Origin: Amphiscolops sp. MND2022
Taxonomy: Eukaryota
NCBI GenBank assembly: GCA_964187785.1
Contig: OZ076409.1
Location: 41,480,001-41,544,000 of the forward strand
Reading direction: 5' to 3'
Length of the DNA stretch: 64,000 nt
The notes below the pieces were generated by a model. That model saw nothing but the letters and a program-made list of their open reading frames with translations. It was not told the origin of the DNA and searched no databases. A program made the position numbers and the translations under genes. Every line of letters begins with the position of its first letter. Positions within the stretch are counted from its first letter, which is position 1. Positions 11,467 through 45,000 of this stretch are shown one piece after another.

Positions 11467-12524
11467 CGGTTGTGCGTGTTGTCGTAGAAGTCTTAAAGTA
11501 GAACTGCTATAAAGAGCAGATAGATTAAGTGTAGAAGTGTCTGTACTAAGTCTTCGTGAAGGAAGATCTCGAAGATTATATCTATGATGTGGTACAAAAA
11601 GTGAGCCTGTTGTATCTTGTGTTGGAATGTATTCTGATGTATTGTCTAAGAGATTTGAGAGTGATGTAGAAGGTTTTCGAAGAGGTTTTAATGGTGGATA
11701 AAGTTTTGAAGGAGTAGTACTAAGATCTGATGGTCTTTTCAGTGAAGGTAATTTTGTATATTCAGTATCAGGGATTTGTACAAGATTGAGCTGAGGTTGT
11801 AGTCTAACAGTTTTGATAGCTGTAGGATGTTTGTAATTTACGTATTGTTCAACACTTTTAGGGTTTGGTTTGTGTACTATAGGAGTGTTAATAGGAGTTT
11901 GTTGAGTACGAGTGTTATAGGTATTTCAGTTATAGGTGGTCTATGATGGAGTGATGAAGATGTTGTTTCAGAAACGTATGATCTTGGTCGTTTAGAAAAG
12001 TAGTAGGAGTTACATTACTAGAGTTTGTAGTGTTTGATACTGAAAATTCAGAAGTAGAAGGAATACTTGGAGGTGATGGAGTTATATCAGAGGAAGAATC
12101 CAGGATTCTTGAAATGTTTTGAACAGGTTATCTTTGAGATAACTTGTTATTGGTTATCTTGCATTCAGCTGTAGTGACTAGTTTCGATAGAGCCAGCGGA
12201 TAGAATGATGGGGTTACAGTTTTGAGGGTGTAATAAAAAGTCTATAATCTAATTTGGGTTGTTGTCGTAGTTAATAAGTAGTTTTAGTAGTTCTGTCATT
12301 TAGAGGAGGAAGTGAAGTTGTTTGGTTATTAGAAGGGTGTCTTGATCTGTCACTAGAGATGTTAGTGTGAGGGGTGTTAATTATATGTTTAAAGAAGGAG
12401 TTGTCATTGGTTGAGGAAGTTAAAGACTTGTCATTGGATGTTGTAGATGGTGTATTTTGATTGGACGTTCTAAATGATGATGGTGTCACAAATGTTTGAG
12501 AATAATTATCCGTTGTGGATGGTG

Positions 12525-20100: not shown

Positions 20101-20394
20101 ACATCTTGTATAGAAATAAAATGTCCCAGAGTTTATTCCTTTAACTGGGTTAAAAATAACTTGGAAAGGGGTTTGTGATGATGTTATTTCAAGTGTTTTA
20201 TATCGAATGTAATAAAGATAAGAATCACAATGTTCTCGTGCTTATGGAATAGTATGTATTGTATGGTGTTCTGTTTCAAATGAAAGTGGATTTGTGTTCT
20301 GAAAAATGATGTTATTCAGAAAAGGTGTTACATCTTGTATGAGAGATCGATTTTGTCTTTTTTCTGTATTTAATGTAAATGGAGTAGGAAGCAT
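17136..20394 (-). pseudogene. gag: Gag with long N-terminal extension, capsid domain, CCHC zinc knuckle and RS-rich tract, in frame with protease
   Basis: Capsid-like PIKPFDG...LTGTALSWY...DWHAFVQAF and ETVRHFALKV...FTKGLP. CSYCHRTNHSISAC at 17782-17823. ORF 18788-19873 is in frame with the capsid ORF across one TAG. Confidence 0.88.
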
Positions 20395-20409
20395 TATATG
20401 ATGTAAGAT

Positions 20410-20784
20410 TTAGTTAGTAAAATAAGATTGCCATAAAGGATAGATGTAATGGAAAAGAAGATATTTTGTATTGAATTGTGAATTATATGGTAAGATTTGG
20501 TCTATGAATACAACTTGTAAGAAGATTGTAAGTGCTGTACTTATGAAAAGAAGAAATGGGTTTTGTATATATTGGATAAGCGTATAAAAGGTATGGTAGA
20601 TACTAAGCAGTCCAAAAAGAGGTAGTGCTATACTTCTTAACATAGAAGGAAAAAGTTGTACTTTAAAATTTTGGTATGAACGAAAATAAGAGTTTTTCAA
20701 GAAAAAGTGCACGACCGGCAACAAAGCAATAAAGAACCAAAAGCAGACAATGAGCTTGACTACAATGTCTATTGATGACGGCAT
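20410..20784 (-). CDS. 5' hydrophobic ORF with ~3 predicted transmembrane segments, same frame as the start of gag
   Basis: IVVKLIVCFWFFIALLPVVHFFL, IALPLFGLLSIYHTFYTLI, FLLFISTALTIFLQVVFI. Its TAA is 5 codons upstream of the in-frame ATG at 20394. Confidence 0.55.
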   Translation of the reverse strand: MPSSIDIVVKLIVCFWFFIALLPVVHFFLKNSYFRSYQNFKVQLFPSMLRSIALPLFGLLSIYHTFYTLIQYIQNPFLLFISTALTIFLQVVFIDQILPYNSQFNTKYLLFHYIYPLWQSYFTN

Positions 20785-21193
20785 GTACAATAGAGTTCAA
20801 TTAAGAGTGTGTCAAAGAGGTTGTATAAAAGTGTATTATATAAATGTAGGAAAAATAAAGTTTAATAGATTTGTTATAAATTTTAATTGTTATGTATTTG
20901 TTATGTATTTGGATCCGTAAACTTGTTTTGAAAGAGTTTTGTATGATGTTTGTACTATAGAAGAGAGAGAAAGAAAAGTGTTATAATGGTGTTATGTAAA
21001 AAATATATGTTATATAGGTGTGCCAACTTTAAAGTTGACCCTAGCGGCTAGAACCAAAGAATTGTTTACTAGCAGGTATCGCTGGATAGCACTGTAGAAG
21101 GGCCAACACGTATCGCACGTCTGCGGTTGGAACGGAAGAAAGAGAGAAAGCCAACACGAATTCACTCAGAGGTGATTGGAACGAAAAATTTTT

Positions 21194-21325
21194 ACTGGCA
21201 GGAATTACGCGAATAAACGAAGTCAGAACCAAGAAATATGACTGACAGGAATTACGTTGAGAAACGCAGTCAGAACCAAGAAATGTAACTGACAGGAATT
21301 ACGTGAGGAGACGTAATCAGAACCA
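21194..21325. repeat. 47-bp degenerate tandem repeat (3 copies) in the element's 5' leader
   Basis: ACTG(G/A)CAGGAATTACG...TCAGAACCA at 21194, 21241 and 21288. Confidence 0.85.
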
Positions 21326-21504
21326 TAGCAACACGAATCAATTTCTAGTGGAAATTGGTTGCAACGATGAAGTTAATAACGGTAGGCTATATTGAGAGGT
21401 GGAGAAACTGTGTGTCGAACAAAGAGATATCGGATGAGAAAGTCGAGAAAAAGTGTACAACAATTGTAGAGGTGTGAAATGAATGGGAGAGAAAGAAGAA
21501 TTTT

Positions 21505-21517
21505 CTTGGTCGCACCA
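21505..21517 (-). promoter_or_regulatory. Putative primer-binding site TGGTGCGACCAAG
   Basis: TGG starts 2 nt after the 5' LTR's CA end. Cognate tRNA not determined (TGGTGC resembles Gly/His acceptor ends). Confidence 0.75.
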
Positions 21518-21519
21518 AT

Positions 21520-21921
21520 TGAGCTGTTAAAAAGTGTTGTGGTTGTTTCTTTTAGATGTTTTATTACAGACATAAGAAGTCTAAGATTTTAACAGCAGGG
21601 TCGTCTTTCTTTTATCTCATAGCTAAGTACAATCTATTTCTGAGATCTCAGTTCTTGAAGTGCTGGAGGGAAGACCAGTCGTCAGGATGAATTCTCAATT
21701 TCTCCGAGTAGATATATTCTATTAACTAGGGTAGGTTTCATCAATTAACAAGGTGACAGCAACAGGATGAATCTAAGAAGCTTGTTACAGGATTTATTAA
21801 GTGAAGTTTCTTCTAGAATAATTAGCTTTCAAATGACATTACATTTACTAATTACTTTGGTTAAGAGTTCAGAGTATTTCGGATTTGTAGAATCTTTGAG
21901 GACATGCATCATGGCATCACA
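21520..21921 (-). repeat. 5' LTR (402 bp)
   Basis: Matches 3893-4304; adjacent to the PBS; TG...CA ends. Confidence 0.97.
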
Positions 21922-23673: not shown

Positions 23674-23833
23674 ATGGCTCAAGTCAGTGGTATCCCAGAA
23701 GATGTTTTGATGTTCTACAAAGAATTGGATGAGTTCGAAATACAATTACCCGGTAACAAGGCAGAGACCTTTTGCTGTGATGAAACTTTGCTAGAAATGT
23801 CCGAGAAACAGTATCCGGAATGGAAAAACCAGG
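23674..23833 (+). CDS. Probable first coding exon of the NERD-helicase gene
   Basis: ATAATGG start, protein-like MAQVSGIPEDVLMF...QYPEWKNQ, donor-like G|GTTGGA. Phase does not match exon 2 directly, so a micro-exon or other site is needed. Confidence 0.45.
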
Positions 23834-26800
23834 GTTGGAAAACAGCTTTTTCTCAAGATTATTTATCAAAACAACTGCTAACTATACATCGTTAATTAAT
23901 TGCAAATAATTAATGTGAGACTGCGTAAAAAACTCAAAAAGCGTCACTAATTGTTCGAATTTTTCTTCACAAATTAGTCATAGAAACAATATCAAGCAAA
24001 CCTAATGTTGATATTAGAGACTACTTGTCAACAGTATGCGCATAACTTCAAAAAATGTCATACATTGCTTTCAAACCTATCAAAATGTAGCCTATTGATA
24101 CAAATTTAGTGAAATTCAAGCATTACAAACTACCGAAACTGTCGAAGTACCATCGTGATACAATGAGTTCAAATGAGTTCACTTATTCCGGGCAATTTCA
24201 AACAATATGACTTTTAACCAATTAGTACTAAGCTAGAAACCACAAAAAACGCTCTTGCAACAACTTCCGCTTGTAAATATTCTGTGAATTTATGGTTATA
24301 GTTCATGATTGCCACACTTCATTTTTTACAGTAAGATAAACCACATGCGTTTCGTATTACGATATGTGACAGGAATTGCAGTACGAGTTGCATCGTTCAA
24401 AGGATCTTCAACCCGTTCATCGTTCAAAGGATATTAAAAACAACTTCAACCCTGGCTTGTTAGGCAAAGTGACGTCAGTCCCAGTGGCAAGAGTCCCGAA
24501 ACTGTTTATAGATAGTGAGCAAATGCATAAAAAGCTACAGCATGAAGTCAAAGGAACTATAAAAGGAGAAGAAGCCGAGCAACAGCTGTACCGATTATTT
24601 ACGGAACACTCTGGTTGAAAATATGAATTCCTCACAACACAAAAGTCTCTATTAACTTTTTATTTTAGGTCTTGTCCAAATTGAGTTTCATGGCAATGAA
24701 TCGGCGTTTCTGTTTCATTTGCATTTCATTTCTCTCAATTATATCTTGAAGTAGTTACTGAAAATTACCGTTTCATAGGAAAAAATGTAGGAACAACATC
24801 TGCTATAATCTTAAGTCAAGAATTTGAATTTGTTATAAATTTGATAGTCAAAATCTGAAATAGCAATGATTTTTCACAGTCTTCATTTGCCGGGATCTCG
24901 AATTGTTAAGACATCCAATTGGAAGTGATGACTACAATTGAGGTGATGACGAAATTGCAGTACCTTAATTTGCTAGGATCTTGACATTTGATAATCTCGA
25001 ACAGCCATGATCTAAAATTTCCAATATTTTGAACTGCCAGGATCTTCATTTGGCCAAAATTTTGAATTGAAAGGATCTAGAATGTTAAGGATTTAGATTG
25101 GCAGGATCTTGGCAGCTAGTAACGTTTTTTAGAACGCTCTCAATAACTTTATTGAGTTTTCCATATTGTCGGCCTGATTTATGTTTTTAGATTTTGCAAA
25201 ATTTTCATAACTGGAGAAGGAATACATTTGCGGTCGACAGGAGAGGCGTTTAAAAATCAATTCGGAGTAATGATTTTCCCAAACCTTGATGGTTCCCACA
25301 TCTTCAAATCCAAAGTTGCTTGTGTTGAAATTGACATGGCTCTCATTCATCCCACAAAAGGAGTTTTTGTTTTCAACGTGAAGAAGGAAGGTAGATTCAA
25401 CCGCAAACAAGTTCACTGTGACAAACAAACTGAAGGAGTCAAGAAAGATATCAAGAAACACACGAATTTCATTCGCTTGCTCATAAACTACAAATCCAAA
25501 GCCGATCTTCCAATACACTCAGTCATTTGTGATTTCGCGAGCGAAAACTCCAAATTTACTGAATTGAAGAACGAAGATTCCAGCGAAAAGGTTATCGTTT
25601 TTTCAAAAGAGGAGCTGAAAAAAAGTAATTTCGTCAAACTCTGGAGCTCTAAACTTGCAGAGATTGGATGCAAAGCGAAGCCCAGTGAGGTTGATTTGGT
25701 AGTTGCTCGTATGATAGCTCTTGCTTCCATTGAAGGAGCAGCCGTTTTAATAGGCGAGAAGATGAAAAGAGGTCTACTTCAATCCGTCTCTCAAAAGAAA
25801 CGTTTACAAACTCAATTGTGTGCAAACAACGACGAGAAATTCAAGGAAAACGTTTGCAAACTCTCTGAAATTGAACCTTTGCAAAAACATCCTGTTGAAC
25901 GCCGGAAAAACGTTTTCATTCTTTGGAGTGCAGACCAGTTGGAAGTTATTGGAAGACTATATGCTCACCTAACGAAAGAATTACCTAAAGGAGCACGAAT
26001 TTTAGTCAATGGCAGGTTTCCTAGCATATCAAGAAATAATTTGCTTCTTAACATTTCAAAAAGAAATAATCAGTGGTTGAGTATTTTTCTCATTTTCCCT
26101 GGACGAGCCAACGTTTAGACAATGGAATCACTTAATGCATCCATGATGAATTTTCGCTATCATTCAGATGGAAAGAAATAACATTATGATTGTTGATTTA
26201 TCACACAAAAGTATAAATTAAACATATCGAAATTACTATGCAGCCACTGAAACTGACCTCTAAAAGCATTTGGCTTTGAGAAATGAAAGTCTTTTGGTAA
26301 TTTAACTTTTTCGTGACAGAACACCATTTTTGCTGTTGGAAATTCCCTTCTCAGGAAACAGTTTTTTAAAATCTAAGTTCTATGGAATCCTAACTGCAGG
26401 GGGTAAAGGCACAGGAAAAACTATGTTGCTAGTTTTCCTCGCCAAAATGGCACAGATATTGCTGGAGTTGGAACACAACTTGGTGGAAAAATTTGCAGTA
26501 GAGCCACAACCCAAGAAGGATGAGAATAACAAAACGACCTCAATTTTGGTGTGTCACGGCGATCTCAGCTGTCGGAGTTTGACGACTGCACTTAAGGAAG
26601 CTTTTGAGGGTGTTGACGTCACTGTGGAGGATCTAAAATGTTAGTCCGATGCACGCATATACGTACGTTAAAGTTATATCAATCAATCAACAAGCAAGAA
26701 GGGTTTTTGTGATAAAAAACACCTCCGAAAAGATTCATTAAAATCTGAAAAATTTGATGAACATATCGTTGAGGAATTTTTATTACTGCATACAGAAGTA

Positions 26801-29800
26801 TGCAATATATCTAAATCATTTCTTGTTCAACTCTGTAGATAGTCATACTCACAAAAGCTCTATATTTTTCCAAAAAAAAAGTGCTGCACGGCTGTTTATT
26901 TTGTTGTTAGATACTCATATCAACAAAGACATCCAAAAAGTTCAACATTTCGCTTGAAACAGTTGAGAGTTAGGAACAAAAAAGTAGTAAGTTCAATTGT
27001 AGTATACAGTGAGGTGGATGCAGAATCACCAGTTCTGCTTTTCTAAAACAGTGCCTTTTCCGGATGCTCCCTATAGCAAGCTACGCCACCCTTTTAATTT
27101 CCAATTCGTCAGAGATAGTCTGCTTGTATCTGTAACGTCCACCAGTTTGGTGGCACCTGCTAGAAATTTTAAATTCAATTCCAATTGTGACATGGCCGAC
27201 CTGGCATGTGCCCAAAATCAGGTCAGAAGTCGGTGCACAAGAAAAAGAGAGATAACACCCCGGACAGAGAAAAAGAGAAAAAGAACGCCCAGAAGTCTCC
27301 GAAAACAGCTACTTATCCTCCCCAAAAGCGAGATATGACACTGTTTGCACCATTTTAATTTCAGCAGAAATGACGATATTTCGGAAGACAGAAGAGGAAT
27401 GGAACTTTCATACAAACTGTAACGGTGACCCAAAACTCGTTCCTGATGCCTTCTCGATTTGTTATTGTTGTTTTATTTTAATTTACAGGTATTTGGTGAT
27501 GTGTGATATGCTAGATCTCCTATCGTTACCACCCATGAAGCCCAATGTAATGTACTTCAGATAATTGCCTCTTTGGACCTCGGTAGTTTATAGGAAGTCA
27601 CAGGAACCTTAGGATTCGTTCTTACGTGCTTGTGGAATGTTCCCGGACTTTGAGTGTGTCGACACGTCGCCTCGGATCTCTTATAGAGGAGTCTCCTTGA
27701 CGTTAGAAATGTCCCCCTCGGAGACCATTTTTGGGACAAAAACTGATTTTTAGAGTTGTAGTAAGACCATGATCTCATGTCAAGACAACCAAGGCATTAT
27801 CGCAGCTCTAGCATGTACGTCTCCTGCTTGACGCTACAATCTGTGATTTCATAGTGACTTTCATTTTATCTCAATGCTTCTTCCCAGTTGTCCTTCCCAT
27901 TTTTGTTCTCTCCGTAAAACGTTTTCTCCCATTTTTTTCATAGCCGTACCACTGGGCTGGAAAAATACTTGAATCAAACTAAAAGTTGCCAGAGGGAGAT
28001 TCGTAATTTTTTAGAAACTAGTCTTCAAGCTCTTACCCACTATAACATGATCCTCAGATTTCGTTTTCCTTCTAGTTTTTTTTCATAAATATTTACCTTT
28101 TTTGAAAAAAAAACATACTGAATTATTCAAAAATGTGTTTGGTAGCCTGAAATGCTGATTTTATACTTCAACCACTAACTTCTCTCAACAAAAAAATTGT
28201 GCAAATGAAGAACTGTTTAAAAAGTATTGATTGAGTAGTACTCATCAGAACATCCGAAACTTGAACAGAAAACGAACAAAAGAAGGGATCTTTTTTGTTT
28301 TGTGATTTTTGTTTAGCAATTTTTGTTTTCTTTGGATCTTTTCAAAGAATAAATTCCGAAAGTTGCTACTCAGAAGCATCCTAAAAGTTCAACAAAATTT
28401 TTCAGATGTCGCTTGACAAAAGATTCAACTATATCGACATACACGTATCCCACGAGACTACTTTCATGGCAGTTTTTGGGGAAAAAACGCGGCTGAGTTA
28501 GTGTTTGGAGTGAAGTCTATGTTTTCCCTAAAATCTGCCAAAGACCTTGAGTCTTTCTTTATGAATTTCGTATTCGGCTCTTTAATGACACCATGTTTGC
28601 ATTAGGTTCTTTAGTGATTACATTTCTTAGACAACCTGACGTTCATTGCACTTAATAGTATCTCGATAGACTCTGCAAGTCTGCCGTGTCTAACTGAACT
28701 GTTTCAATTATCGATGATCCTGATCTCATTTTCTTTCATTTTTTCTTTTCACTTTCATTTTTAGGTTAATACTCAAAGTAGTGATGCTTTTCGGGGCCAA
28801 TTATCACATTATCAAGTTCTCTCTCTATGGAATTTGAATTTCAATTCCTAGCATTATGTCCATCTTGCGGTAATGAGATATTAACCTATTCTCTAGATTT
28901 TCTAGCCTTAGCTTTTTGTCTTCTAGTGGAAGGCATAAATGATAGTACAGGAGGAATATTTAATTGCCATTTGTATTTCAACTTTTGAAGTTCAACGGTT
29001 GCACATTTAACAGTATCAAATCGTATGAAAGTTGTGTGTCCTGAGTGACCGTCCAGCGTTTATTTACCCAGTAGGGCATGACATTCAGAATAGGATTGGT
29101 CATGTTTCTAAAATAGGCTTTTTTGCTAAGTATAGCGTCATCATCTATAAATAGCATCATCATGTCACTGTTTGTTTATGACTGCGGTAAGATCAAAACA
29201 TTTAACAGTCGGAAAGGGGCGTGATGACTAGACTGGTTCATCTAATGAAGAAATTACATGTGACAGCAACTTTACATCGGTACGTCCTTTCATGTAGGGC
29301 TTTTACTTGAATAAAAACTTCACTAATACACTCTGCTTTTATCCACAATCATAATAATAATACTAGCTAAATGTATACTTAGACCTGTTAGGCCGCATGG
29401 CCTTACTCGTACTTTCCCGCTGACTATGAATATATTACAGCAACAGCGAACAAAGTGTTGAATAAATACTACGCTGTGATTGGCTAATACAACGCCGAAG
29501 CTATGCTAGCTATACTGAACAGGCAGACATTTCAACTTGTTTCCTTTCTGGCTGTCACTAAAGCTTTGCTGTCTATATGATCAACTGTATTCATGCAAAT
29601 TTATCTTACATATTTTGAAAGTCAGATAAAAAACAGTTTCCAACATATTAGTTTTTATTAAAGGTATAGTCTCGAGATGGGCAATTGGTCTGATGTGGTC
29701 ATTTGTATAGAGGTTGTCATCACCCGTTGCAGCCTGCTACAGTTATTTTCCTATTCTGTATGGACAAAAGCGGAAAGATGCACTCGAATTACAAAACAAA

Positions 29801-32800
29801 TCTCACAAAAAGAAATTTTGACACGTCTTGAATAAAACTTTCCTTAGAATAACTAGTTTCTGTTTACATAAAATTGCCATTTAGCTGAGTGTTTTTGTAT
29901 TTGAGCCCTGTGGACACCCATGCCCAAAACTGCATGATATGGCCCAGGGTTTCCTGTCGGAACCGCCTTAAGATAATGACCAAACCATGCGATTTGAGAC
30001 TTTTTCATTCGGCCATCATAGAACGGCAAAACAGGAAGCTGAACAAACCTAGTTGTGGTTACAAGTTGATTATGGACTAGATCTTATAAGGTTCAGTCTT
30101 TGGTTCGTAATGTCCCGTAATTGTTTTACCAGCTTGAGTTAGTCATCAATAGCTAACATATTAGAAATCTCGAGTACATCTGAACAAACGCGCTTTTTTG
30201 TACCACATAACTAAACAAAATACTTGCGTTTTGATTGTTACAATACAAGCCATTTGATTGTTGTCCAATACTGAGTTATTCACAATTGATTTCAATTGAA
30301 GCACAAATCTTCTTCGAAGTTGAGAAAAATTGCAATAAAACGACTGCGCTTGGAAAAAATACCTGTTTTATCATGATTCAGAGTGATGAGTAACATTTTA
30401 AAAGTAGCAGGTTTGAATCTAGAAGAGTTGAATGTATCATCGTAATTTTGATCGCAAAAAAAGACGAATTCGGTCCTTTTCAACAACGAGGTTTTGACTG
30501 TTTTTCGTAAATTGAACTTTCAAAAATTGCAATGCAATGCTACCAGGGGACATGTCATTCATAATTCGAGACTAGAAAGAGCAAGCAAGGTGTTGTCTTT
30601 GATCAGCCACGTTGTGATGTCACAATTGCTCACAGATCAATGAAAACGTTCGTATCCACGACGCTACTACGTGGAAATGCTGTTGGTTCAAAAGAAGGAA
30701 TTCACGTCAACACAACGCAGCACTGTTAAAAGGCTAACAAACAATTGATATGATCTACGTCACCGCTGGTTTTAAGTTTCCAATAAGCGTTGACTTTGTG
30801 CTCATCTGACCTACGTGATGAAAAGTATCGAAGGTACATAATAGACAATGGAATATGTTTCCTCTTCAATTTAGGATTGAAATTAGGAAGGTCGCAGAAC
30901 ATTTGTGGAAGTCCATATCAAAGATCAATCCTTCCTAAATATGAAACCTAAATCCGTTTTCCTTCAGTCAAAAGAGTTAAAACTTTCCTTGGCCTGGAAC
31001 CCTGAGCGGAGACCGATTCCGATTTACTGGCCAAACATGTTAACCAATTGCTTGATAATTCCGAACTAGGAACAAGCTTTTCCCAATAAAGGACCTGTAT
31101 GTATGGTAAATGATAATTTATTACTTTTCTATGGATAAATCTATTGTGTGTTAGTAACACAGTTGATATTTTCCCCTATTGAAGGAGTTCATTTTACGTC
31201 GTAGCAACGCGTCATGTTTGAAGCTCTGTTCAGTGTTTAAGTACGTTGCTAAAAGCCAATATTGAAACGTTAAATGGAAACCTATTTCCTAGAAACCTTG
31301 TCGAAACTCTAGCCGTCATACCGCTGACTCAAACGTTAGATCAACGATTAGTTGACGCGAAATTCAAACAAATCTTATACAGTAATATTATGTTGCAAGG
31401 CCAACTCCTGTTTATGCTTGAAAAACAGTTAAAATTTCCTTCTCACTGAGAATAGTCTTATCATAATTCCTTTGCATTTGGCTAAACTGTTGACGAAAGT
31501 GCAATTTAATAGTAAAATCTTTCATATTTTGATCCAATCGTTGACAAGTCGTTGTTTGCGACGTAGTGTTGACGTAAATTCAAAATCGGTCCGTATTGTC
31601 TTTTTTGCAACGTTGTCTAGACATGTGTAATAAAATCGGCTATTTAATGGCAGCGATATTCGTGCCAGTGACGTCAACAAAATTTTTTCCAAATTATAAA
31701 GTATTGCTGGCATAGCTGTCTTGATGACGTCAAAAGAATCATTCCAATTAGTTCATCACAGCATTTTAAATTGCAGTAATCGAGTTCAAAGCGATAACAG
31801 TCGGGAGCTGGCTGTGATAAAACTACTCGGAAAAGAAAGGAGGCTTTATGTAGGTTTTTGTCATTGTACTTGTTTCTTCCATCAACGGGGATTGTTAATT
31901 TCTGACTGAAACTCGTACTTTCTTGGGTTCGGTGCTTTCACTAATTGATGCCTTGCAGATCGTTCCGCTTGCTATCACATCTAATTTGTGTTTCTCTACT
32001 GATTTACACGAACGTTCACCTATCGCAGTTTTCCTCCGGTTAGTCTGCAGATTCTCCCTTCCATTAACCTCGGTGATTCTAACCTTCATGAAGTGGCGAG
32101 CTTCACTATGTAAGTCACAACTTATCTTTTCGGGCGCGCCAAAAGATAATCCATTCATAGTCGCAAGTCTTGGCTTTTTACTGCACTCGCCCAACGTCAG
32201 CCTCCCGTCCATGAGGATGTACTCTCTGTCATTGCTCAGTGTGCTACTGATCCGGGTAAAAATTGCTACATGTACATTGAGCGAGATCTTCCACTCTCCT
32301 TTGGACTGACCGGGATGTCGTCTTTCAATTCTGTACTGGCCCAATTTATCGGCGGGTGCTTTAAGGAACTTTTTGTGCGATTTGTGTAACGCAGAAAACA
32401 CGAAAATAAAGAATGCTTGTTTTTGCTAGATAGACATTCAGTGATTTATCAGTCGACAATTAATATCGTCCGCAACATGTGACTAAAGTGGTACGCTAAT
32501 CTAGAAAATGTCAATTTGATACCAATGAGTCGCAGTTGTGCACCGTTTTCATAGTGATCGTTTTCATGCACTGCTTGATAGTACTAACGAGCCACCGGTC
32601 AGGTCAGTCAATAACATTATTGTATCGACGGAGAAATGCCAAGGTAATTCCTAGCTTGTAAATCGTGTTTTTGAGAGTGCAACATTTGCTTGGGTAGGCG
32701 AGAGCAGGACAAATGAGAGCTTCTCAAAAAAGACATCAGTGTTGTTACCACATTCCAAAGTCAATTGTCTACTCGGACTGTAAAACGTTTTGCTCTCGAC

Positions 32801-35800
32801 CGTTTTATATCAATGGATTCCACTGTTCAAATATGCTTCGAATGCTTCGTCGTCAAAGCTTCGTCTATAGTTTGGTCAAATTAAGTACCACGTGAGCTCG
32901 CAAGCAACCAGAGTAAATTATGAGTGAAACTGCGAGTTAGAAGGGAGTTTCCACTGGCTTGGAATATTACGTCATTCAGTCGTTGGCTTAGAGTAATCAG
33001 TCGCAGAAAAGTCGGTGAGAAGTTTGGGCGAACGGTGGTCGATTTTTCGGCAAAAGGTGACTTATAGAAGAGAACACTTCGACCACAACAACAAATTCAA
33101 TGGAGACACCGTTTTTGAAGTTGAAATTAAACAAAGAACGCCACGGAGAGTCACCGTTCCGTACGTTTGACTAGCTGACCAAAGAGTGTGTTCCTAGTAA
33201 AAGAGAGTTTAACTTTGGCGGCGTCAAAACCTTCTCCAGGCACTACTCTGTTGTAAATGTCATTTTGAAGTTGCTTTGACTCAGAGAGGTGTTGTTTTCA
33301 CGTAGGCTCTAGGCGTTTCCGCTTCTTTCGACGATTTGTTTTTACAGTTGGGGTTTGAGGATAAAGTTGCACTCTAGAGAAATTCGATTGCAAAATTGTT
33401 TTCCCATTTTTAACTGATGCAGAATTACAAACAACTAACTTCTGTATTGTCTCTAATATGCCTTCCTAGCATCTTTCGTTCACTCCTAAAAACTCCTAGG
33501 AATTTCGAAAACGAGAAATGTTAATGACTATATCGATAACATCCACTTCATTAAGACAATTACAATCAATCGTCATATTGTTGACACAAATTCCTAGATT
33601 TTCTCTTACTTTCGTTGATTAAGGTACCAGACAGTGTTGAAATCATTTTTGTTCAGCCATGTGTTGTTTTTGACTTGTCGTCAAATGGAAGGTATTATCT
33701 GCGTTATTCAACCACGCTAGGTGTGAGCAAATAAAATAATTTTGTAGAATGTGACCAAAATTTGACGCAGATGGGACTAATGAGAATAATATTCCGCAGG
33801 AGAATTGAACGAAGATGCTTGATGAAAGCAATGGAAAAGAATAGGAATCGTAACATCTGGTTAAACTGACACTTCTAACTATTTCACAGTTTTCAATTGA
33901 AACGTAATTATAACATTAAAACAACAACAAATATCTAATTCGTAAAAATTGACAAACGTCGTCACTATTACGTCCCAATATAATTACGATAAGAAATCTT
34001 TGTTTGACACAAATACGTAACAGCGGTTTCTGTAACATCAATTTGATGTTTATAATGCATCAGTGATAATTTGTGACGTTTGGCAATTGTTTTACACTGG
34101 GCATGTTGTAAAAACTATCGTTCGAAATCAGGTCAACGATTGATTGGTTGAAGTAAAATTTCAAACAACTCTTATACAGTAATATTATGTTGACGTAATG
34201 CCAAACCCTGTTTATGTTTGCAAAGCTTCGTTGAAATGTTCCTTCTCACAGAGAAAAATCATATTATAAGTCCAATTCAGTTGGCTAAACTGTTGACGCA
34301 AGTGCGACGTATTAGTACAATCTTTCATAATTTGATACTATCGTTGACGGTTTGTGGACGTAGATTCAAGATCAATCCTTATTGCCTTGTTTGCGACGTT
34401 GTGTTGACGTAAATTCAAATTCAGTCCTTATCGCCCTATTTGCGACGTAGTCTTGAAATGTGTTATATTATCGGCTATTTGTTGGCAGCAACATTCGTGC
34501 CAGTGACGTCACAGAAAATCATCATAAATTATAAAGTTTCCCTGGCCTTGCTGTCTCGATGACGTCACAAAAGCCATTAGTGCATCACAGTAAATTAAAT
34601 TGTAGTAGACGTGTTCAAAGCGATAACAGCCGGGAGCTGGCTGTGACATCGAGAGCAAGTTACGACAAATTGAAATGAAAATAAGGACTACTTCATGTCC
34701 ACTAGAGTGAAGTAAAAACTACTTCCTGTTCGCGGGATGGCTAATTAACACCACGGTACTGAAATATTTTCATATTCGTTGATAAATAATTGACGCAATT
34801 TTGAACTATTTCCTAATAGTTTTCGAAGGATTGTTGCCAGCTTGAACTGATTGGAAAAAAATACGAATTTTCATCTGGTGACTCCTTTTTCAGGATTATA
34901 AAAGTTGATGAGGCTGAACACATAATGCTAGGAGAGAGAAACACGAGCTGCGTTTTTGTGACTTTAGTCAACCAGTTACCCTGCTTGTAATTGTGTTTAA
35001 AACTTTTACGGTGTGAAACACAAAACCGTTTTTCAAATATGTTCACTAAAATTCAGAAAAAAAACTGTTCGAGAGGAGGAGAAAATTGTAAATCCCATTG
35101 AAGACGACAAACTAAAAGTAGTTGTCCGTGAATAAGCGGTCGCGTCCCCCATGAAAACCAAAGTCCCCAGATTTGAAAATAATGATGGAGATACTTGAAG
35201 CAACGTCGAGCGAAGAAATAACTTGAGTGATTTTGAAACTCATAGTCTATCACCAAAAAACTATTCAAAATTCGTTAGGCTGGAAATGACTACACCACTG
35301 TAAACTCCATTGAAAACGCTATATCAAGAGAAGGGTTTTCACTCCAATTAAAAACTACGTCCAAATGATGTAGTAAATAGCGGATCGGAAGCGACCCGTC
35401 AAATGTGTTTCCTTCTGAATAAGATGAGAAAATTTTTTGAACTCTCCAGATTTGGCAAACTTTATAATAGAGAATTTGAGTTCTTTGGACAAAAATTGGC
35501 GTTTCATACCTAAAAACAATTGAAAACGAAAGATTTGGTGATATCAAAAAAATGCCGAAACGTCGCGCAGTGCTAAAAACAAACCTTTGGTCTCATGTAG
35601 ATTCTACGATACCGTAAATTTATGAAAAGGTACTTCAAGGTACTTCAAGGTACTCAAATGGTACGCTTTGGCATCTAAGGGCGCGCTTTAGATCTTATGC
35701 GTACATTGTGAAAAAAATGACCATTGGGTAAGCTTCGTGTCTGTGATCTGGAGAAAACAACTAAGTGTCGTTTAAGATGGGCGTATTTTTAAAATGAAGT

Positions 35801-38800
35801 CCAGCGACTAATAAAAACGCGGCTTAGTTAGTAGTTTTTCACACCCACATATAACTTACGGCCACGTGAAATTAAAATCGTATTTTGTTAAGAGTCTTTT
35901 TCTAATAAAATATGTTTTGCTTTTTAATATAGCTATTGGGCTTCAACAGCAATTACAAAGCTTCAAGATGATACTATGCGACGAAGCCTCGAGCCGAATC
36001 ATTCGACTTTTGCTCGATAATTCGACAGAAGAGCAACATTTAATTCTCTTCACCGCAGAAAAGAAAAGAAACGTGGACCCACAACTGGAACAGTTCTTTC
36101 TCAGAACTTGCCTCCGATCCACTTCACAGTTGGCATGGTTTGCAAACACTCACCATTTGAGACAGTTGGAAAATGTCTCAGTTCACGTAGCTTTTCCATC
36201 CAAGACTTTCCACGGTGAACTCCCAGACATAAGGTGGGCAGATGAAAATTCAAACGAAAATGACTTCTTGCAGAAAAGTATCGATGCAATTCTTGAACTT
36301 GTTGCCGAACCCGGACTTGACTTCGCCATTGTGCCGTTATTGCAGAAAGATCTTCTTCAACGAATATTAGACACTCTGAGTGGAAACCATTTGTGTAACG
36401 TTGACAAAGCCCTGGTTGAGAAAAAAGGCTCTCATCGCCAAATTCTTTCAACATCTAGCAAAGATAGTGGAGTCTAGCGAAGGTAATGGAACTTGAGAAA
36501 CAATTCTTTAAAATTAATCAACCTCTTTGTTTATTGGGGATTTTTTGATAAATTGCCCGCGTTGGCTTTTCAACAAGAAACATGTAAAACATAAAATTTC
36601 ATAAACATGGAGATAGATGCAACGATGACCATTCAAAAAATAGAACTATGCAAATCTTACAACGAACATGCTAAGGTCACTATAGGATAAAACTGCTCTT
36701 CACAGTGTTTTTAATACATGGCATATCGTGAATAAATATGCATAACGTAGTTAGTTATTGCTTATTTGGTCAGATTATTGGCTATGTATTTAATATTAGC
36801 TTATTATTGGCTTCCTCAACCGAAGTATCTTTTACTACCAAAACAGTGCCCTAGTCGAGACTGCTGGAATTTTTTATATGCTGCACGTACAGTTACTTTT
36901 CATGAAATCTAGAGAATTCAAAAAGCTTCCGGTCGTACACCTTGTAGGATTGCTCTGCAGCTTGCAGTAATTAAAATAAAATTGAAAAAAAAAACATTCA
37001 ACTTCCTTGCCGACACGACCAAGTTGTATTATTAACACTTTGGCAACTGATCCGCGATCTGATGTGATCACCATTTCTCAAATAGCACGCCAAACTTGGC
37101 GCTAATTTGCAGTTTAATTCATGACTGAGGTCATTTTGCATTAAAAAGGCGGCAAGACTGATAGCAACTCAGTTGTACGTTAAACTAAAACTGTTTCTTG
37201 ATGAAACCTGCAAAACTTCGAGGCTTCAAATTTTCGGCAAAATTAGTATGGGTCTTTCAGGCAGTGAATACATTAGGGAAAATATTTTTGCATGAACGTT
37301 TCCGTAAGCGTTGTAAAAGATTATTAAACAAGTCGCTTGCAACATTAAACTGCATACGAAAAGATCAACAAGGATGAGTAAACAATCACAATGCGAATTG
37401 TTGGCATCTGATGCTGATTTGTCAATGATTATTGTGTGAAAAAAAACACAAATCGTCCAGAAAAATTGGTGTGATTGTATCGAAAGTAATAAAGTTAAAT
37501 GTAGATACTAACTTAGAGGTTTTAAAATTTATTTATTTAAGGTTTAATTTGCGTATTCAAACACCTCCAGTGTACCAGTTGCCGATATCGGAGGTTAGAA
37601 ACGCGTGAGTGTCAATTCCAGCTCAAGCTTATACTAAAGAAAGCTACTGCTAGTTGAAAGCTTCCATGTTAAATGAACGTTAACTATGATCATTCATGAA
37701 AACATGAAGGTGATCCTCATTTATGTTTTTAACGTGACAATAAAAAATTCTTCAGTTATAGCAACTTGATTTCAAATATGGAAACATTTTGTGAACTACA
37801 TTTCAGGTCAATTGGGTTTGCAAAAAAGTACCTTCCGCGTACATACATTGACTGACGTTATCTGTCACAAAACAAATCTTCTCCACATCAACGAAAACGG
37901 TACTTGAAGCATATTGTATGACGTCACCCGGATAGGCATTCCATCAAAGCACCGGTCGCCACTTTTGAAAATATTCAGTAAGGATCCAAAATTGCCGCCA
38001 CTGGTGGTCACTGGTAATCAACCGGAGTTTGGCAGTTGATTGCCAGCATGCGCAGACATCGAGATTTTCAGACGGACCGTCATGAAAAATTCCGTGAGGA
38101 ACACAGCGTGTTTTTAGCTCGTCGAAAACTTTGAACGTGACTATGTTTTTCAAAAAGCATCACTTCACGCAAATTTTGCGAAGTTTTGAGCCGCTTGCCC
38201 GGTCGTGTCGAAACTCAACGCTTTTTAGATTTTCCAGGAGCCCTACGACAACGAGGTATATGACGACTGGCATGACGTATCATCTTTAGGCAATCACTGG
38301 GGAAGCCTATGTTTTATTCAATCAGTCGCGATTGATACGCTTCTGCTAGGCTACCTCATACCAGTGTGCACGGAACTCTTGGTTTTCGCAATCACAAATT
38401 CATTATTGTAGAAGGAGGAAAATCGATCTTTGTAACGTTTTCTTTTCAATTTTTCCAAATATCCTTTTACGATTCTATTTACATAGTGTAGTTACTTATT
38501 AGGTAACTTGAAAATTGTGGAATTCTAATCACAGTAGCACAGTTGGTAGTGCTGCCACCTGGGAGACAGGAAGATGTGGGTTCAAATCCAGGCTAGCGAC
38601 TGGAACATTTTTGGGTTTCCCAAGAACTAGGTGATCAGTATATTTCTGGATGGGTTTCGAACCTCGCCTTCCCTACTTTTTGTGTGGCGGAAAATATCCC
38701 GGTATTGCAGGGGTCTTGATGTAGTATACTAAGAATACCATTTTAAATTGCCTCCTGAAGTAGTAGTTCTATGTCTTTCCGACATACGACGGCTTCTGGA

Positions 38801-40543
38801 ACCCTTCCGTTAGCTACGCCTCTAGGCTACAGGTTGACTTTACATTAGAATGTTTGCTTTTTTGTACCATTCTCAAAATAAAGGTCTTGCTAAGAATGAA
38901 CTTTTAAAGAGTGAGGATCTTGTAACCATTCATTTCTCAACCAGGGAACCCTCTATATCAAAAGTGGCGTTGAAATGCAAACCCGAAACAAAACCATAAT
39001 TAACTTTTTCCACCCTCTGACAATCGAAGGTTTTGAGTTTTCGAAAGTTCTCATTTTGCTAGATAACAAAAAAAGTTTCTTGCAATTTGACGACAGTCAT
39101 TTCTTCACTGCCTGCACTAGAGCTTGTCTGAAGCTGTTAGTCGTTACCAATGAATGCAACGAGCATGACAAAGAGTGGCAAGATTTTGCAAGAAGTAACG
39201 TGGACAAAATTCTATCCGAAATTTCACCTGGTGTAGAAAATCCTTATGTGTTGTTAGTGGGACGAATTGAGCATTTGCTTGAACGTTTGAAATGCTACAA
39301 AACGGCCCAAGAACATAAATACACCGAATTTCAATCAACTCTTTATGAATATGAAAGAGATGGACGTAAATTTTTACAATCTGATTTTGTCTATCTGGAA
39401 CGCGAATTGAAGGAGATGTTAAAATTGGGGGTAAAGGGAATAGTCTTTGCGACTGACAACGCCTGTACCAACAAATGGCAGTACTACTTCACGACTCTGA
39501 GCTACTGGTTCTGTTATGACTTCAACCGTCGGAATGCAAACTGTTTTGAGTTGGAGGATTTGATGCAGAGTGCTGACGAATTAAACTTCAGGATGAATTT
39601 CCGGAAAGCTTTTCTTCATCGACTTTCAGGCCAAATTGATGTCGAGTTTCCTCGTTTCTGGCTCAAGTTGGAGAAGAATTCTTTGTCTTCTGCATTGATT
39701 GGTTGGGAAGAGTGGGTAGCGATAGCGGAAAAGTGTCAAGAACGAGATTATATTACACAAACAATTTTCATTTACGAGTGTGGAATGGAAACTTTACGCC
39801 AGCAAATCACGTCCGACGGATCAGAAAACTTTCTTCAGAAGAAACTTGCTGATTTATCACTTTTCGTTGCCAATGCTTACATCGACAGTTTGAGTATCAT
39901 CGTTGAAGAAAGCAAATGTTCGTACTGGGTCCCAACCACCTCATATGAAGTATGCTTGCTAAAAGCTTTCAGACATGCTGCCAATGCACTCAAATGGCAT
40001 GCGTCAAATCTCTATTTGAAGTTTAAGTCACTCGAACGAATTTTTCAAGAAATGGAAAAGTACCCAAAAACACAATTGTTTAAGACAGAGGTGGAACAAA
40101 TGAACAAAGACGACATTTCAGGAATGATTTTCGAAACCAGACTGAGACATGAATTGCCTCAAAATCAGTTACTCTTATTTCCTGAGTTCGAGGAATGCCT
40201 TTGCGAGCTAGAAACTCTTATCTGTAACTACGAAAAAAGAAGTTTCGGTAGCACCGACCCATACTCCATGAGAAAAACCATTTCAGCATTGGCCGGAGAA
40301 TTAGCGGGAAAAGGTCGTGTATTAGAAGTTGAGCAAAGTGATGATGCGTTTCAAGCGGCAATAAGCAAGATGATGGTGCAACTTGATTATCCTGTACAAC
40401 TAGCTATGATAGCACTTCATTGGGATCACAAACTAGAAGACAATTTGAAACTTCTATCCGATGCCCTGATCAGTCTAAAACAGAGTTTCGAATTGGTCAA
40501 GAGCGAAAAACGGTATCACCCAATGGATCCAATGAATCGATAA
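23674..40543 (+). CDS. Spliced host gene: NERD-like nuclease domain + SF1 (UvrD/Schlafen-group-like) helicase + helical C-terminal domain, ~1,110-1,160 aa
   Basis: Phase-compatible exons 24373-24613, 25241-26011, 26400-26639, 35933-36414 and 38945-40543 total 3333 nt with no internal stop. A probable first exon starts at 23674, but its splice to exon 2 is unresolved. Motifs occur in the expected order. Confidence 0.8.
24373..24613 (+). CDS. Exon: N-terminal part of the NERD domain
   Basis: ACAG acceptor, KGEEAEQQLYRLF (NERD G-x-x-x-E helix), donor G|GTTGAA. Confidence 0.7.
25241..26011 (+). CDS. Exon: NERD core and helicase Q-motif region
   Basis: EIDMALIHPTKGVFVFNVK and ILWSADQ; phase-1 acceptor GACAG|GA. 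Confidence 0.82.
26400..26639 (+). CDS. Exon: Walker A
   Basis: GGKGTGKTMLL; acceptor CTGCAG, donor T|GTTAGT. Confidence 0.82.
28502..29610 (-). mobile_element. Decayed solo LTR of the ORF-containing family (intronic)
   Basis: Begins TGTAAGA and ends CCAAACA on the minus strand. Colinear with 1-1357, including a broken MPSTRRQKAKARKSRE ORF from 28936. No clean TSD. Confidence 0.78.
31335..31818. repeat. Dispersed ~0.5-kb TGACGT-rich repeat, copy 1 (left edge approximate)
   Basis: Aligns with 34128-34648, e.g. TCTTATACAGTAATATTATGTTG and GTTCAAAGCGATAACAG(T/C)CGGGAGCTGGCTGTGA. Confidence 0.8.
34128..34648. repeat. Dispersed ~0.5-kb TGACGT-rich repeat, copy 2
   Basis: Direct, diverged copy of 31335-31818; ends sharply at GGCTGTGACA. 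Confidence 0.8.
35933..36414 (+). CDS. Exon: Walker B and central helicase motifs
   Basis: MILCDEA and FLRTCLRST; T-rich acceptor ATAG|CT (phase 1), donor CTG|GTTGAG (phase 0). Confidence 0.82.
38527..38740 (+). mobile_element. tRNA-derived SINE (3' end approximate)
   Basis: Pol III A box TAGCACAGTTGG and B box GGTTCAAATCC at tRNA spacing, poor acceptor stem, followed by an unrelated body. Confidence 0.65.
38945..40543 (+). CDS. Last exon: SF1 motifs V/VI and ~470-aa helical C-terminal domain
   Basis: LTIEGFEFSKVLIL and FFTACTRACLKLLVV; long stop-free frame; CCAG|GGA phase-0 acceptor. Confidence 0.87.
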   Translation, partial: GTLYIKSGVEMQTRNKTIINFFHPLTIEGFEFSKVLILLDNKKSFLQFDDSHFFTACTRACLKLLVVTNECNEHDKEWQDFARSNVDKILSEISPGVENPYVLLVGRIEHLLERLKCYKTAQEHKYTEFQSTLYEYERDGRKFLQSDFVYLERELKEMLKLGVKGIVFATDNACTNKWQYYFTTLSYWFCYDFNRRNANCFELEDLMQSADELNFRMNFRKAFLHRLSGQIDVEFPRFWLKLEKNSLSSALIGWEEWVAIAEKCQERDYITQTIFIYECGMETLRQQITSDGSENFLQKKLADLSLFVANAYIDSLSIIVEESKCSYWVPTTSYEVCLLKAFRHAANALKWHASNLYLKFKSLERIFQEMEKYPKTQLFKTEVEQMNKDDISGMIFETRLRHELPQNQLLLFPEFEECLCELETLICNYEKRSFGSTDPYSMRKTISALAGELAGKGRVLEVEQSDDAFQAAISKMMVQLDYPVQLAMIALHWDHKLEDNLKLLSDALISLKQSFELVKSEKRYHPMDPMNR

Positions 40544-41532: not shown

Positions 41533-42010
41533 AAACAAGCCGGGAACGGCCCAAGTCGGCGCCATATCCAAGGCTCAAAAATAGCAAAAGGACTTCACAA
41601 TTTCCAAGTATTGGTGAATTGGGACTACTTTTATGAATTTTTTTTTTGAAAAAAAGTCTCACAATGCCGAAAAAACTGAAATGGAGGACCCTTTGAGTTT
41701 TTTCAACATCCATTCTGTTGCAAAACTCCAAAAAAATTTAAAAGGGCCCTTTCGTGGGGAAAAAGTTTTTCTGAAAAAAGTCGCACAGTGCCGAAAAAAT
41801 GGACCCTTTGGTCTCATCCGGTATCGTATGTTACGCGGGAAACCTTTTTGGTTCAGTTCCTTGGGCCAATGGGTAAATTTTGGCGTCTTCTGAAAATTTT
41901 GTAGAACTTTTGGTAGAACTATTTTGGTCAGTTCAGGTGGTCTTTAAAAAACACTGACGAAAAGCCATGACTATAGTCGTCTCTTTTCTAAAGAAAAGCG
42001 CCGACTAAAA
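41533..42010 (-). mobile_element. Helentron-associated (HINE/DINE-1-like) non-autonomous element
   Basis: Subterminal inverted repeats AGTCGGCGC (41554-41562) and GCGCCGACT (41998-42006). Palindromic inner repeat at 41975-42006. Terminal hairpin GCCG-GGAA-CGGC (41539-41550). T-rich ends on the minus strand. Confidence 0.65.
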
Positions 42011-45000
42011 ACGCGAAACAAAAAGTTTTAGCAAGAACACTCAAATGAGGTAGCCACAAGCACGAGAAAAAAGATCTCGCGTATTCTCTAAGAGATTTAA
42101 TAACCCTCACTCTTGAGTATTTTGAAGCGGTGAACTAGTTTTACTTCAAAATGGGCAACTGGTTCTGATTTTACACCTTTTCTTGATGGCTTGTACAAAC
42201 GGTTTCCGAATTTGGGACTCAATAAGTCTGTTTATCACAGTTTGATGAAGTTCTGGCAGACTGTTACAAAAGAACGTAGTAAAGACGAATAAAATTTCAC
42301 TAATCAGCAACTGTCAATTCTGAGATCTATTATTTAGTGTTGATTGACGTCATCAAGTTCCCATTAAACAGTGAATTTTCAAAAGATGTCTGCGAGCGGC
42401 AAAAATCTGTACTGTTGGCGTCGGTCAATTGCCAGACAGAACAATCGATAACGAGCACATTGGAAGAAAAAATAACTGAAAACTCTTACAAAGATATTGA
42501 CATTTAATGCGGAACTCAGCCGTCGCGAAAGTTGAAGTTGAACACCCCAACTAAATTGATGAGTTCTTCACAGAACTAGATAAAAACTTGCAAACGTATG
42601 AAAGCACCCATTTAGACCCCATAGCCAAAGTTCCAGATCATCCTTCTATTATAACCCAAATTACCTCTCACATGTGTGTTTTTCAAGATGAATAAATGAC
42701 AATGTAACCATTGTGATTTTTCTCAACGATCTCGAAATGTCATTCCTGCTCTATTGGCAAGCAATTTTACAGTATCTAAAACCAACTGCTGAGTCAACAT
42801 GACACGCATTTTAAGTCAGCGTTCCATGAACCGAAACGCGACAATAAAGTTAATTATTCATCAATCTACAGGTACTGACCAATTTAGTTCCACCAAGTTC
42901 TAGAAATTTTGAAAAAAGGCCAATGTTTACTAATTGGCCCAGGAAACGGAACTATAACAGTTGTTAATTTTTTAAAGTAATATCCAGAATGATTTGGTTT
43001 TGTTCGACACTGTGAGATTTTTTTGGAAAGATTTAAATGTCCCTTCAGTTGTTTTGATGTTTTGCACCAGAATGGATCTCAAAAAAAATCCATAGGGTCC
43101 TCCCTTTTAGCGTGCCAGTTCGGTTCCCCTTTGGGTTTTTTGGGTACTGTGGAAGATAATACCGGACAATTTGAAATCCTTCGGCTATTTTTGAGCCTTC
43201 GGCAGGGTGACGAAAGTTCCACAAGGAAAAAACAGTTGCTTTACAATCGAACTCCAAGAGCATAAAACAATTTCCAAGTATTGGTGAATTGGGACTACTT
43301 TTATGAAATTTTTTTTTGAAAAAAAAGTCTCACAATGCCGAAAAAACTGAAATGGAGGACCCTTTGAGTTTTTTCAACATCCATTCTGTTGCAAAACTCC
43401 AAAAAAATTTAAGGGGGGCCTTTCGTGGGGAAAAAGTTTTTCTGAAAAAAGTCGCACAGTGCCGAAAAAATGGACCCTTTGGTCTCATCCGGTATCGTAT
43501 GTTACGCGGGAAACCTTTTTGGTTCAGTTCCTTGGGCCAATGGGTAAATTTTGGCGTCTTCTGAAAATTTTGTAGAACTTTTGGTAGAACTATTTTGGTC
43601 AGTTCAGGTGGTCTTTAAAAAACACTGACGAAAAGCCATGACTATAGTCGTCTCTTTTCTAAAGAAAAGCGCCGACTAAAAACGCGAAACAAAAAGTTTT
43701 AGCAAGAACACTCAAATGAGGTAGCCACAAGCACGAGAAAAAAGATCTCGCGTATTCTCTAAGAGATTTAATAACCCTCACTCTTGAGTATTTTGAAGCG
43801 GTGAACTAGTTTCACTTCAAAATGGGCAACTGGTTCTGATTTTACACCTTTTCTTGATGGCTTGTACAAACGGTTTCCGAATTTGGGACTCAATAAGTCT
43901 GTTTATCACAGTTTGATGAAGTTCTGGCAGACTGTTACAAAAGAAAGTAGTAAAGACGAATAAACTTTCACTAATCAGCAACTGTCAATTCTGAGATCTA
44001 TTATTTAGTGTTGATTGACGTCATCAAGTTCCCATTAAACAGTGAATTTTCAAAAGATGTCTGCGAGCGGCAAAAATCTGTACTGTTGGCGTCGGTCAAT
44101 TGCCAGACAGAACAATCGATAACGAGCACATTGGAAGAAAAAATAACTGAAAACTCTTACAAAGATATTGACATTTAATGCGGAACTCAGCCGTCGCGAA
44201 AGTTGAAGTTGAACACCCCAACTAAATTGATGAGTTCTTCACAGAACTAGATAAAAACTTGCAAACGTATGAAAGCACCCATTTAGACCCCATAGCCAAA
44301 GTTCCAGATCATCCTTCTATTATAACCCAAATTACCTCTCACATGTGTGTTTTTCAAGATGAATAAATGACAATGTAACCATTGTGATTTTTCTCAACGA
44401 TCTCGAAATGTCATTCCTGCTCTATTGGCAAGCAATTTTACAGTATCTAAAACCAACTGCTGAGTCAACATGACACGCATTTCAAGTCAGCGTTCCATGA
44501 ACCGAAACGCGACAATAAAGTTAATTATTCATCAATCTAGGTACTGACCAATTTAGTTCCACCAAGTTCTAGAAATTTTGAAAAAAGGCCAATGTTTACT
44601 ATTTGGCCCAGGAAACGGAACTATAACAGTTGTTAATTTTTTAAAGTAATGTCCAGAATGATTTGGTTTTGTTCGACACTGTGAGATTTTTTTGGAAAGA
44701 TTTAAATGTCCCTTCAGTTGTTTTGATGTTTTGCACCAGAATGGATCTCAAAAAAAATCCATAGGGTCCTCCCTTTTAGCGTGCCAGTTCGGTTCCCCTT
44801 TGGGTTTTTTGGGTACTGTGGAAGATAATACCGGACAATTTGAAATCCTTCGGCTATTTTTGAGCCTTCGGCAGGGTGACGAAAGTTCCACAAGGAAAAA
44901 ACAGTTGCTTTACAATCGAACTCCAAGAGCATAAAACAATTTCCAAGTATTGGTGAATTGGGACTACTTTTATGAAATTTTTTTTGAAAAAAAAGTCTCA

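Follow-up and report, generated by a model that had tools for sequence, protein, structure and literature searches.

Within a 64,000-nucleotide (nt) stretch of the Amphiscolops sp. MND2022 genome (contig OZ076409.1, positions 41,480,001 to 41,544,000 of assembly GCA_964187785.1; hereafter the window; GC content 37.0%), the forward strand carries a gene that runs from the ATG at 23674 to the stop codon at 40541-40543 and whose predicted product joins a NERD domain to a superfamily 1 (SF1) helicase core. The gene is likely spliced from six exons and belongs to an acoel family in which the ATP-binding motifs are kept, whereas a nuclease catalytic residue and the motifs for DNA coupling are lost.

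Gene model and intron history

The original prediction proposed five exons encoding 1,110 amino acids (aa). A stop-free chain of this size can indeed be built from 23674-23752, 25220-26015, 26320-26639, 35933-36471 and 38945-40543, and judging from its length it is presumably the chain that was meant; however, it omits the exon 24464-24613 and half of exon 1, which hold a conserved N-terminal motif and NERD motif I, and both this sixth exon and the longer exon 1 are needed. Phase compatibility alone proves little, since at least 95 stop-free chains of 1,100-1,120 aa can be built at the locus, and the choice among them was therefore decided by homologues. The paralogue P0001, a single genomic open reading frame (ORF), matches four window segments in order, including 24463-24612, and the six-exon model aligns with 421 bits to both P0001 and P0015, compared with 304 and 303 bits for the five-exon chain. 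The six-exon chain (Table 1) comprises 1,133 aa and is stop-free, in phase and colinear with the single-ORF paralogues.

The paralogues also bear on individual junctions. The acceptor-like context of intron 2 opens the paralogue ORFs P0016 and P0129 as well. At intron 3, the Walker A alignment with P0001 and P0002 requires a GC donor at 26012 to be free of gaps, a GT at 26016 would insert extra residues, and the homology of P0014 and P0129 ends at the same codon as this junction. For intron 5, P0125 has the same acceptor-like context, and P0009-P0013 read through the junction. The donor of exon 5 is ambiguous: an exon ending after 36414 gives 280, 300 and 261 bits against P0128, P0013 and P0010, respectively, versus 266, 277 and 243 bits for an end after 36471, which would yield a protein of 1,152 aa. 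In the same region, a 19-nt tandem duplication (36454-36490) creates an in-frame stop, and shortly behind it lies a strong donor-like site (36483), which is out of phase with the conserved acceptor at 38944.

The donors are weak (two lack the +5 G and one is GC), so splicing is deduced from the comparisons; it is supported by paralogues, 58-76% identical, that lose homology at the same junctions yet stay open. If insertions had instead broken an intronless gene and the "introns" were unspliced, the locus would be a pseudogene, and the weak donors, the short inverted repeat of intron 1 and the duplication with its stop just past exon 5 would fit; but six open exons join in phase and in the order of the single-ORF relatives, the paralogues break at the same junctions with open frames, and in neutral simulations to 85% identity exon 6 stayed stop-free in 0 of 300 runs, which indicates a frame under selection. 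A pseudogene is thus considered very unlikely. All four inferred GT donors (23834, 24614, 26640, 36415) start with GTT, three sharing G/GTTG (slash at the splice site), and a 12-nt inverted repeat straddles the ends of intron 1 (23826-23837 and 24447-24458), which hints at either a common, introner-like source or relaxed splice sites. Clear target duplications, which might point to an introner origin of the new introns, were not found, and this inverted repeat at intron 1 is the single one seen.

The 9.3-kb intron was predicted to be filled with repeats. Its length stands (intron 4); as to repeats, comparison within the window shows that an element of approximately 500 nt occurs twice (31346-31817 and 34142-34646, 75% identical), and a 49-nt piece at 28890-28938 is the inverted recurrence of 812-860, within a 223-aa open frame at 808-1476 (+) that has no confident Pfam match.

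Among 126 family proteins (alleles included), junctions 1 to 5 are read through as single ORFs by 83, 90, 73, 42 and 40, respectively. In a quick tree of 81 rows, junction 4 is spanned by no member of a 29-row clade (Shimodaira-Hasegawa-like approximate likelihood ratio test (SH-aLRT) 97), and the breaks at junctions 2 and 3 are concentrated in a clade of four rows (99), the window gene among them; seven other starts at junction 2 are scattered and coincide with the places where BLAST homology begins. With an outgroup of 17 bacterial rows (L130 and L144 left out; quick searches; no mollusc sequence), the acoel rows form one group (100), in which the single-ORF lineages are basal and the window gene is nested. 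The simplest reading is that introns were gained stepwise from an intronless core, and the family would then be a clean case of such gain (0, then 1, then 5). This pattern does not prove horizontal transfer, because the acoel Symsagittifera roscoffensis averages only 3.2 introns per gene (PMC9911081), the trees are quick and no mollusc sequence was included.

Table 1. Exons and introns of the six-exon model (window coordinates)
Feature	Position	Strand	Remarks
Exon 1	23674..23833	+	aa 1-53, N-terminal extension; tblastn of P0001: 44% identity, E 3e-8
Exon 1 donor	23834		GT, phase 1
Intron 1	23834..24463	+	630 nt, GT-AG
Exon 2	24464..24613	+	aa 54-103; tblastn of P0001: 68% over 50 aa, E 1e-16; NERD motif I Glu92 (24577-24579)
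Intron 2	24614..25240	+	627 nt, GT-AG, donor weak
Exon 3	25241..26011	+	aa 104-360: NERD core with Asp135 (25333-25335), Asn149 replacing the ExK Glu (25375-25377) and Lys151; linker helices; Q motif
Intron 3	26012..26399	+	388 nt, inferred GC-AG, within Walker A
Exon 4	26400..26639	+	aa 361-440: Walker A, altered motif Ia
Intron 4	26640..35932	+	9,293 nt, GT-AG; oldest intron, common to the 29-row clade
Exon 5	35933..36414	+	aa 441-601: Walker B, altered motif III, motif IV
Intron 5	36415..38944	+	2,530 nt, GT-AG
Exon 6	38945..40543	+	aa 602-1133: motifs V and VI, then a tail of ~460 aa

Conserved and lost motifs in an acoel NERD-helicase family

The NERD core that had been predicted is matched by PF08378 on the exon-3 ORF alone with 22.0 bits (E 2.4e-4; cut-off 22.1) and in the paralogues P0015 and P0036 with 32.1 and 30.2 bits; 44 of 57 members match at E<=0.3. 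The AlphaFold model of P0036 is confident (predicted local distance difference test (pLDDT) 86.5, predicted template modelling score (pTM) 0.87), its secondary structure fits the alpha-beta-beta-beta-alpha-beta NERD core, and it shows a tandem RecA-like fold (Z 24.1, root-mean-square deviation (rmsd) 3.1 and 303 aligned residues against UvrD 4c2t). Profiles and motifs thus confirm the predicted NERD plus SF1 architecture, and the Q motif, Walker A and B, CLRST and motifs V and VI are all present as described. Orthology to housekeeping helicases (Upf1, Dna2, Pif1, FBH1), which the prediction had also doubted, found no support: the best PDB sequence match of the family profile has an E value of only 0.04, and P0053 has none at E<=10.

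A phmmer search over 1.84 billion representatives, with exon 3 as the query, yielded 73 clusters (at 50% identity) with E<=0.001, in line with the expanded invertebrate family that was anticipated; named members come from Convolutriloba macropyga (P0044, P0073) and S. roscoffensis (P0094, P0036, P0102, P0116). These 73 clusters are not a per-genome count, because they pool several species and haplotypes, and the paper on the S. roscoffensis assembly cautions against haplotype duplicates and false expansions (PMC9911081). Last-exon copies come in two sets of three, each set from contigs of one stated length (364,283 and 341,568), which points to local clustering. P0123 shares 88-100% identity with the window exon in 12 of 13 comparison segments; in the remaining one the value is 70%, and there P0123 equals P0126 (100%); such a mosaic is typical of gene conversion and may have arisen in this way. 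No locus of the family was found in the viral contigs, metagenome contigs, genome contigs or plasmids searched, Rfam gave no match, and the BFVD matches are generic helicases. No paper on the acoel family was found in the literature covered, which excludes most subscription journals and preprint supplements (cross-domain defence surveys).

The family varies most visibly behind motif VI, where the tails of 14 full-core members measure 19-26 aa in six and 328-910 aa in eight. The tail of the window protein is modelled, with low confidence (pLDDT 45.9), in part as TPR-like helices, and in this sense the predicted helical C-terminal domain is borne out. Searches for a known domain in this tail were blank or at chance level in Pfam and reached at best 0.79 in the ESM Atlas, and its homology to the tails of distant paralogues is weak (best E 0.0014; hhalign 7%). 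P0056 and P0063, single ORFs of 1,549 and 1,598 aa, carry a right-handed beta-helix and a MYND finger at their C-terminal ends, which on a NERD-helicase would be an unusual, sensor-like tail. In addition, P0017, P0046, P0058 and P0077 match the same model part twice, which suggests internal duplications of the NERD or N-terminal region.

The motif census was compared with bacterial relatives, gathered with the RTasNERD-Hel model because the PADLOC matches of the family are weak; the comparison set comprises 19 RTasNERD-Hel proteins (model matched in 18 of 251 genomes), and further sets hold 6 NERD+UvrD proteins (from 7 loci) and 2 usable Nhi proteins (from 4 loci). The ExK site is covered by 70 of 75 acoel rows, and none is acidic there (Asn in 56, Ser in 10, another residue in 4), versus 19 of 19 bacteria. 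In the window protein this position is Asn149, and the other three residues of the tetrad are kept. Apart from the ExK acid, conservation across the NERD pocket reaches 92-98% (Asp 65/66, Lys 66/70, EID Glu 63/66, motif I Glu 54/59, His 66/71). The tetrad of the NERD RNase ZwsA consists of E535, D567, E580 and K582, and four substitutions in its NERD domain are described as impairing defence (10.64898/2026.04.06.716636).

The F/Y-N of motif Ia occurs in none of 38 acoel proteins (39 rows) but in 17 of 19 bacteria; the motif III Asp is absent from all 25 acoel proteins, whereas Asp and Gln are present in 19 of 19 bacteria; and the motif V Lys is found in 0 of 22 versus 19 of 19. Motifs Ia and III contact single-stranded DNA (ssDNA) and couple hydrolysis to movement in PcrA and UvrD, and motif Ia, the motif III D-x-x-Q and the motif V Lys have roles in DNA contact and coupling. 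PcrA, UvrD, HelD and SLFN11 all keep the motif III Asp and Gln, and SLFN11, too, is without the motif V Lys. The ATP pocket, by contrast with these losses, is nearly intact (Q motif 39/39, GKT 39/39, Walker B Asp 25/27 and Glu 22/27, motif IV Arg 22/23, motif V GxE 22/22, motif VI Arg finger 22/22), and all of these motifs are present in the window model. The census says that a nucleotide switch is probably under strong selection, and that the motor and the canonical nuclease probably are not.

The description "nuclease-helicase" in the original prediction therefore fits poorly, with Asn or Ser at the ExK position in 66 of 70 members and with near-invariant bacterial motifs lost family-wide. 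The protein could still be an active, Nhi-like nuclease-helicase that cuts foreign nucleic acid, another conserved acid taking the place of the ExK Glu: the motif I Glu, the EID Glu and Asp, the Lys and the His are conserved, and the architecture matches that of Nhi. With the ExK acid gone and motifs Ia, III and V-Lys lost alongside it, all of which 17-19 of 19 bacterial relatives keep, this reading appears unlikely.

Based on the results presented above, we lean, with somewhat less than even confidence, towards an ATP-gated switch that takes part in the innate surveillance of foreign or mobile elements, with the variable tail as its likely recognition part. A switch rather than a processive nuclease-helicase is preferred because the ATP pocket is kept while the ExK acid and the coupling motifs are lost; ATP binding by the window protein is itself deduced from these motifs. 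A ligand would bind the variable tail or the still-conserved NERD pocket (Glu92, Glu133, Asp135, Lys151, His177), the two RecA-like lobes would then change their arrangement in a nucleotide-dependent manner, and this would expose the NERD face, which might serve as a binding platform or a weak, non-canonical nuclease. A layout of effector, NTPase and variable tail is, by analogy, the logic of STAND/NLR proteins. The immune or defence role, which we infer, is favoured because the closest characterised relatives, Nhi and SLFN11, act in defence, and rapid diversification is indicated by the 73 clusters, the local copies, the mosaic paralogues and tails of 19 to 910 aa.

The same motif pattern would suit a functional NTPase switch outside antiviral defence, for example in the control of algal symbionts, germ-line transposon silencing or stress signalling. 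Convolutriloba is photosymbiotic. So is S. roscoffensis, the other named host, according to an abstract, and its genome consists half of LTR elements (long terminal repeats, LTRs) with a GC content of 36.7% (PMC9911081). On the other hand, molluscs supply the nearest Atlas clusters, so proteins of this kind are not bound to acoel symbiosis, and the characterised relatives are defence proteins; a role of this kind is judged improbable.

Several points weigh against a surveillance switch. Amide residues at the ExK acid position occur in active Mrr-type nucleases, and the conserved remainder of the NERD pocket also fits a live variant nuclease. The confident model is that of the paralogue P0036 and not of the window protein, the TPR-like matches of the tail (Z up to 9.7) lie within background, and the PADLOC matches of the family reach only E 6e-8. 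The expansion can reflect drift in an LTR-rich genome, and the warning about false expansions applies to it. In addition, SLFN11 binds ssDNA (PMC9482658) although it is without the motif V Lys. If the surveillance switch is real, a large gene family of an early-branching bilaterian would join the eukaryotic immune parts shared with bacterial anti-phage systems, and a pair of enzymes would have been converted family-wide into a switch.

Neighbouring elements in the window

Upstream of the gene lies an 18-kb Ty3/gypsy-type LTR retroelement (3893-21921, minus strand) with LTRs of approximately 410 nt that are 95% identical, a TTAG target duplication, and pieces of reverse transcriptase (RT), RNase H and integrase; numerous stops and frameshifts interrupt the element. 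Its env-like frame (9436-10596) has a weak match to a Monjiviricetes fusion protein (E 0.012). Since the element ends 1,753 nt before the ATG, the gene might be regarded as cargo of this or another transposon. The element is, however, closed by its own two LTRs and the 4-nt target duplication ahead of the gene start, neither the exons nor 57 relatives matched a transposase, Rep or RT family among the families shown, and no relative was found in viral contigs, all of which makes cargo highly improbable and agrees with the predicted independence from transposons. A window self-comparison found no repeat pair flanking the gene. The adjacency is probably coincidental, as had been supposed; it is expected by chance, because half of the S. 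roscoffensis genome consists of LTR elements.

Other repeats surround these two features. A 608-nt imperfect palindrome (2557-3164, 92%) beside the left LTR is possibly a miniature inverted-repeat transposable element. Just downstream of the gene, 41597-46609 holds three tandem copies (99%) of a unit of approximately 1.67 kb with internal inverted similarity, and tandem duplicated blocks at 53132-55658 (1.27 kb at 99.8%) and 56205-61772 (~2.05 kb at 89%) contain decayed LINE-like reverse transcriptase fragments.

Relation to Schlafens and bacterial defence proteins

Kinship with bacterial NERD-helicases and long Schlafens had been proposed, and both parts are supported. The acoel profile aligns over aa 87-671 with the RTasNERD-Hel set (hhalign 99.4%, E 4e-21, 485 columns; also 99.2%, E 7e-20), and a Foldseek search with the P0036 model fills its top nine rows with SLFN11 and SLFN14 (best E 4e-17; first non-Schlafen 1e-7). 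By Z-score, UvrD chains rank first (24.1, helicase only) and Schlafens reach 20-21. Acoel profiles give only chance-level matches against PDB sequences and no sequence-level Schlafen match, and the full bacterial profile matches SLFN11 in the helicase only. The bacterial genomes searched yielded no close donor: the acoel profile matched only weakly, in motifs V/VI, 5 of 401 and 1 of 401 genomes, and none of 5 further ones.

The structural match to Schlafens appears to extend beyond the helicase. In the VIA alignment, model residues 28-671 are placed on SLFN11 389-899, linker plus helicase; 431-446 residues align to five SLFN11/14 chains from SLFN residues 383-389, inside the linker (SWAVDL domain; 354-576 in SLFN11; PMC9482658), with an rmsd of 14-15, whereas the alignment covers at most 318 residues with UvrD and 291 with the SLFN11 S753D monomer. 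This excess roughly equals a NERD core in size, which suggests that the Schlafen linker is a dead NERD domain and offers a directly testable origin for a domain called "of unknown function" (PMC8789055). This is only a lead, because of the high rmsd and because NERD-only profiles, acoel or bacterial, match no SLFN protein at E<=10. The link between Nhi and Schlafens at the level of the helicase, via DUF2075, is already published (10.1101/776245); nothing was found on an equivalence of NERD and Schlafen linker in the literature covered, with the limits given above. A wider scenario, which we consider possible but rather doubtful, is that acoels (and probably molluscs) carry an AlbA-less sister of long Schlafens, that a bacterial anti-phage NERD-helicase entered animals, that the Schlafen linker is a dead NERD, and that acoels independently made NLR-like ATP switches with swappable sensor tails.

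Among known systems, the long Schlafens (SLFN11, SLFN14, SLFN5) are the best Foldseek matches of the acoel family. The N-terminal AlbA_2 RNase core (~340 aa) is absent from the acoel proteins, in which approximately 85 aa precede NERD, without a Pfam match in the window exons or P0036. SLFN11, described as not being a strand-opening helicase (PMC9482658), keeps motifs Ia and III, whereas the acoel family has lost both. Molluscan NERD proteins resemble the acoel family in language-model features: two of their clusters (91 and 245 members) form the top two ESM Atlas rows with a score of 0.97, ahead of bacterial NERD-helicases, and they were found by no sequence search here.

Nhi (SERP2475), a staphylococcal immunity protein (10.1101/776245), combines, like the acoel family, an N-terminal PD-(D/E)XK domain with an SF1 helicase (of the DUF2075 type) in a single chain. 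P0073 gives a weak PADLOC match to it (E 7.8e-6), and the local profile match spans the helicase part only (hhalign 97.8%). For Nhi, exonuclease, nickase and helicase activities have been shown (10.1101/776245), whereas the acoel proteins have neither the ExK acid nor motif III. Finally, the bacterial RTasNERD-Hel (PDLC03813) and NERD+UvrD (PDLC01087) proteins differ from the acoel proteins, to which they are approximately 17% identical, in that the latter have an N-terminal extension of about 85 aa, long variable tails and introns, and have lost the ExK acid, motif Ia, the motif III Asp/Gln and the motif V Lys; what they share is a colinear arrangement of NERD and a compact SF1 core with the same ATP-pocket residues.

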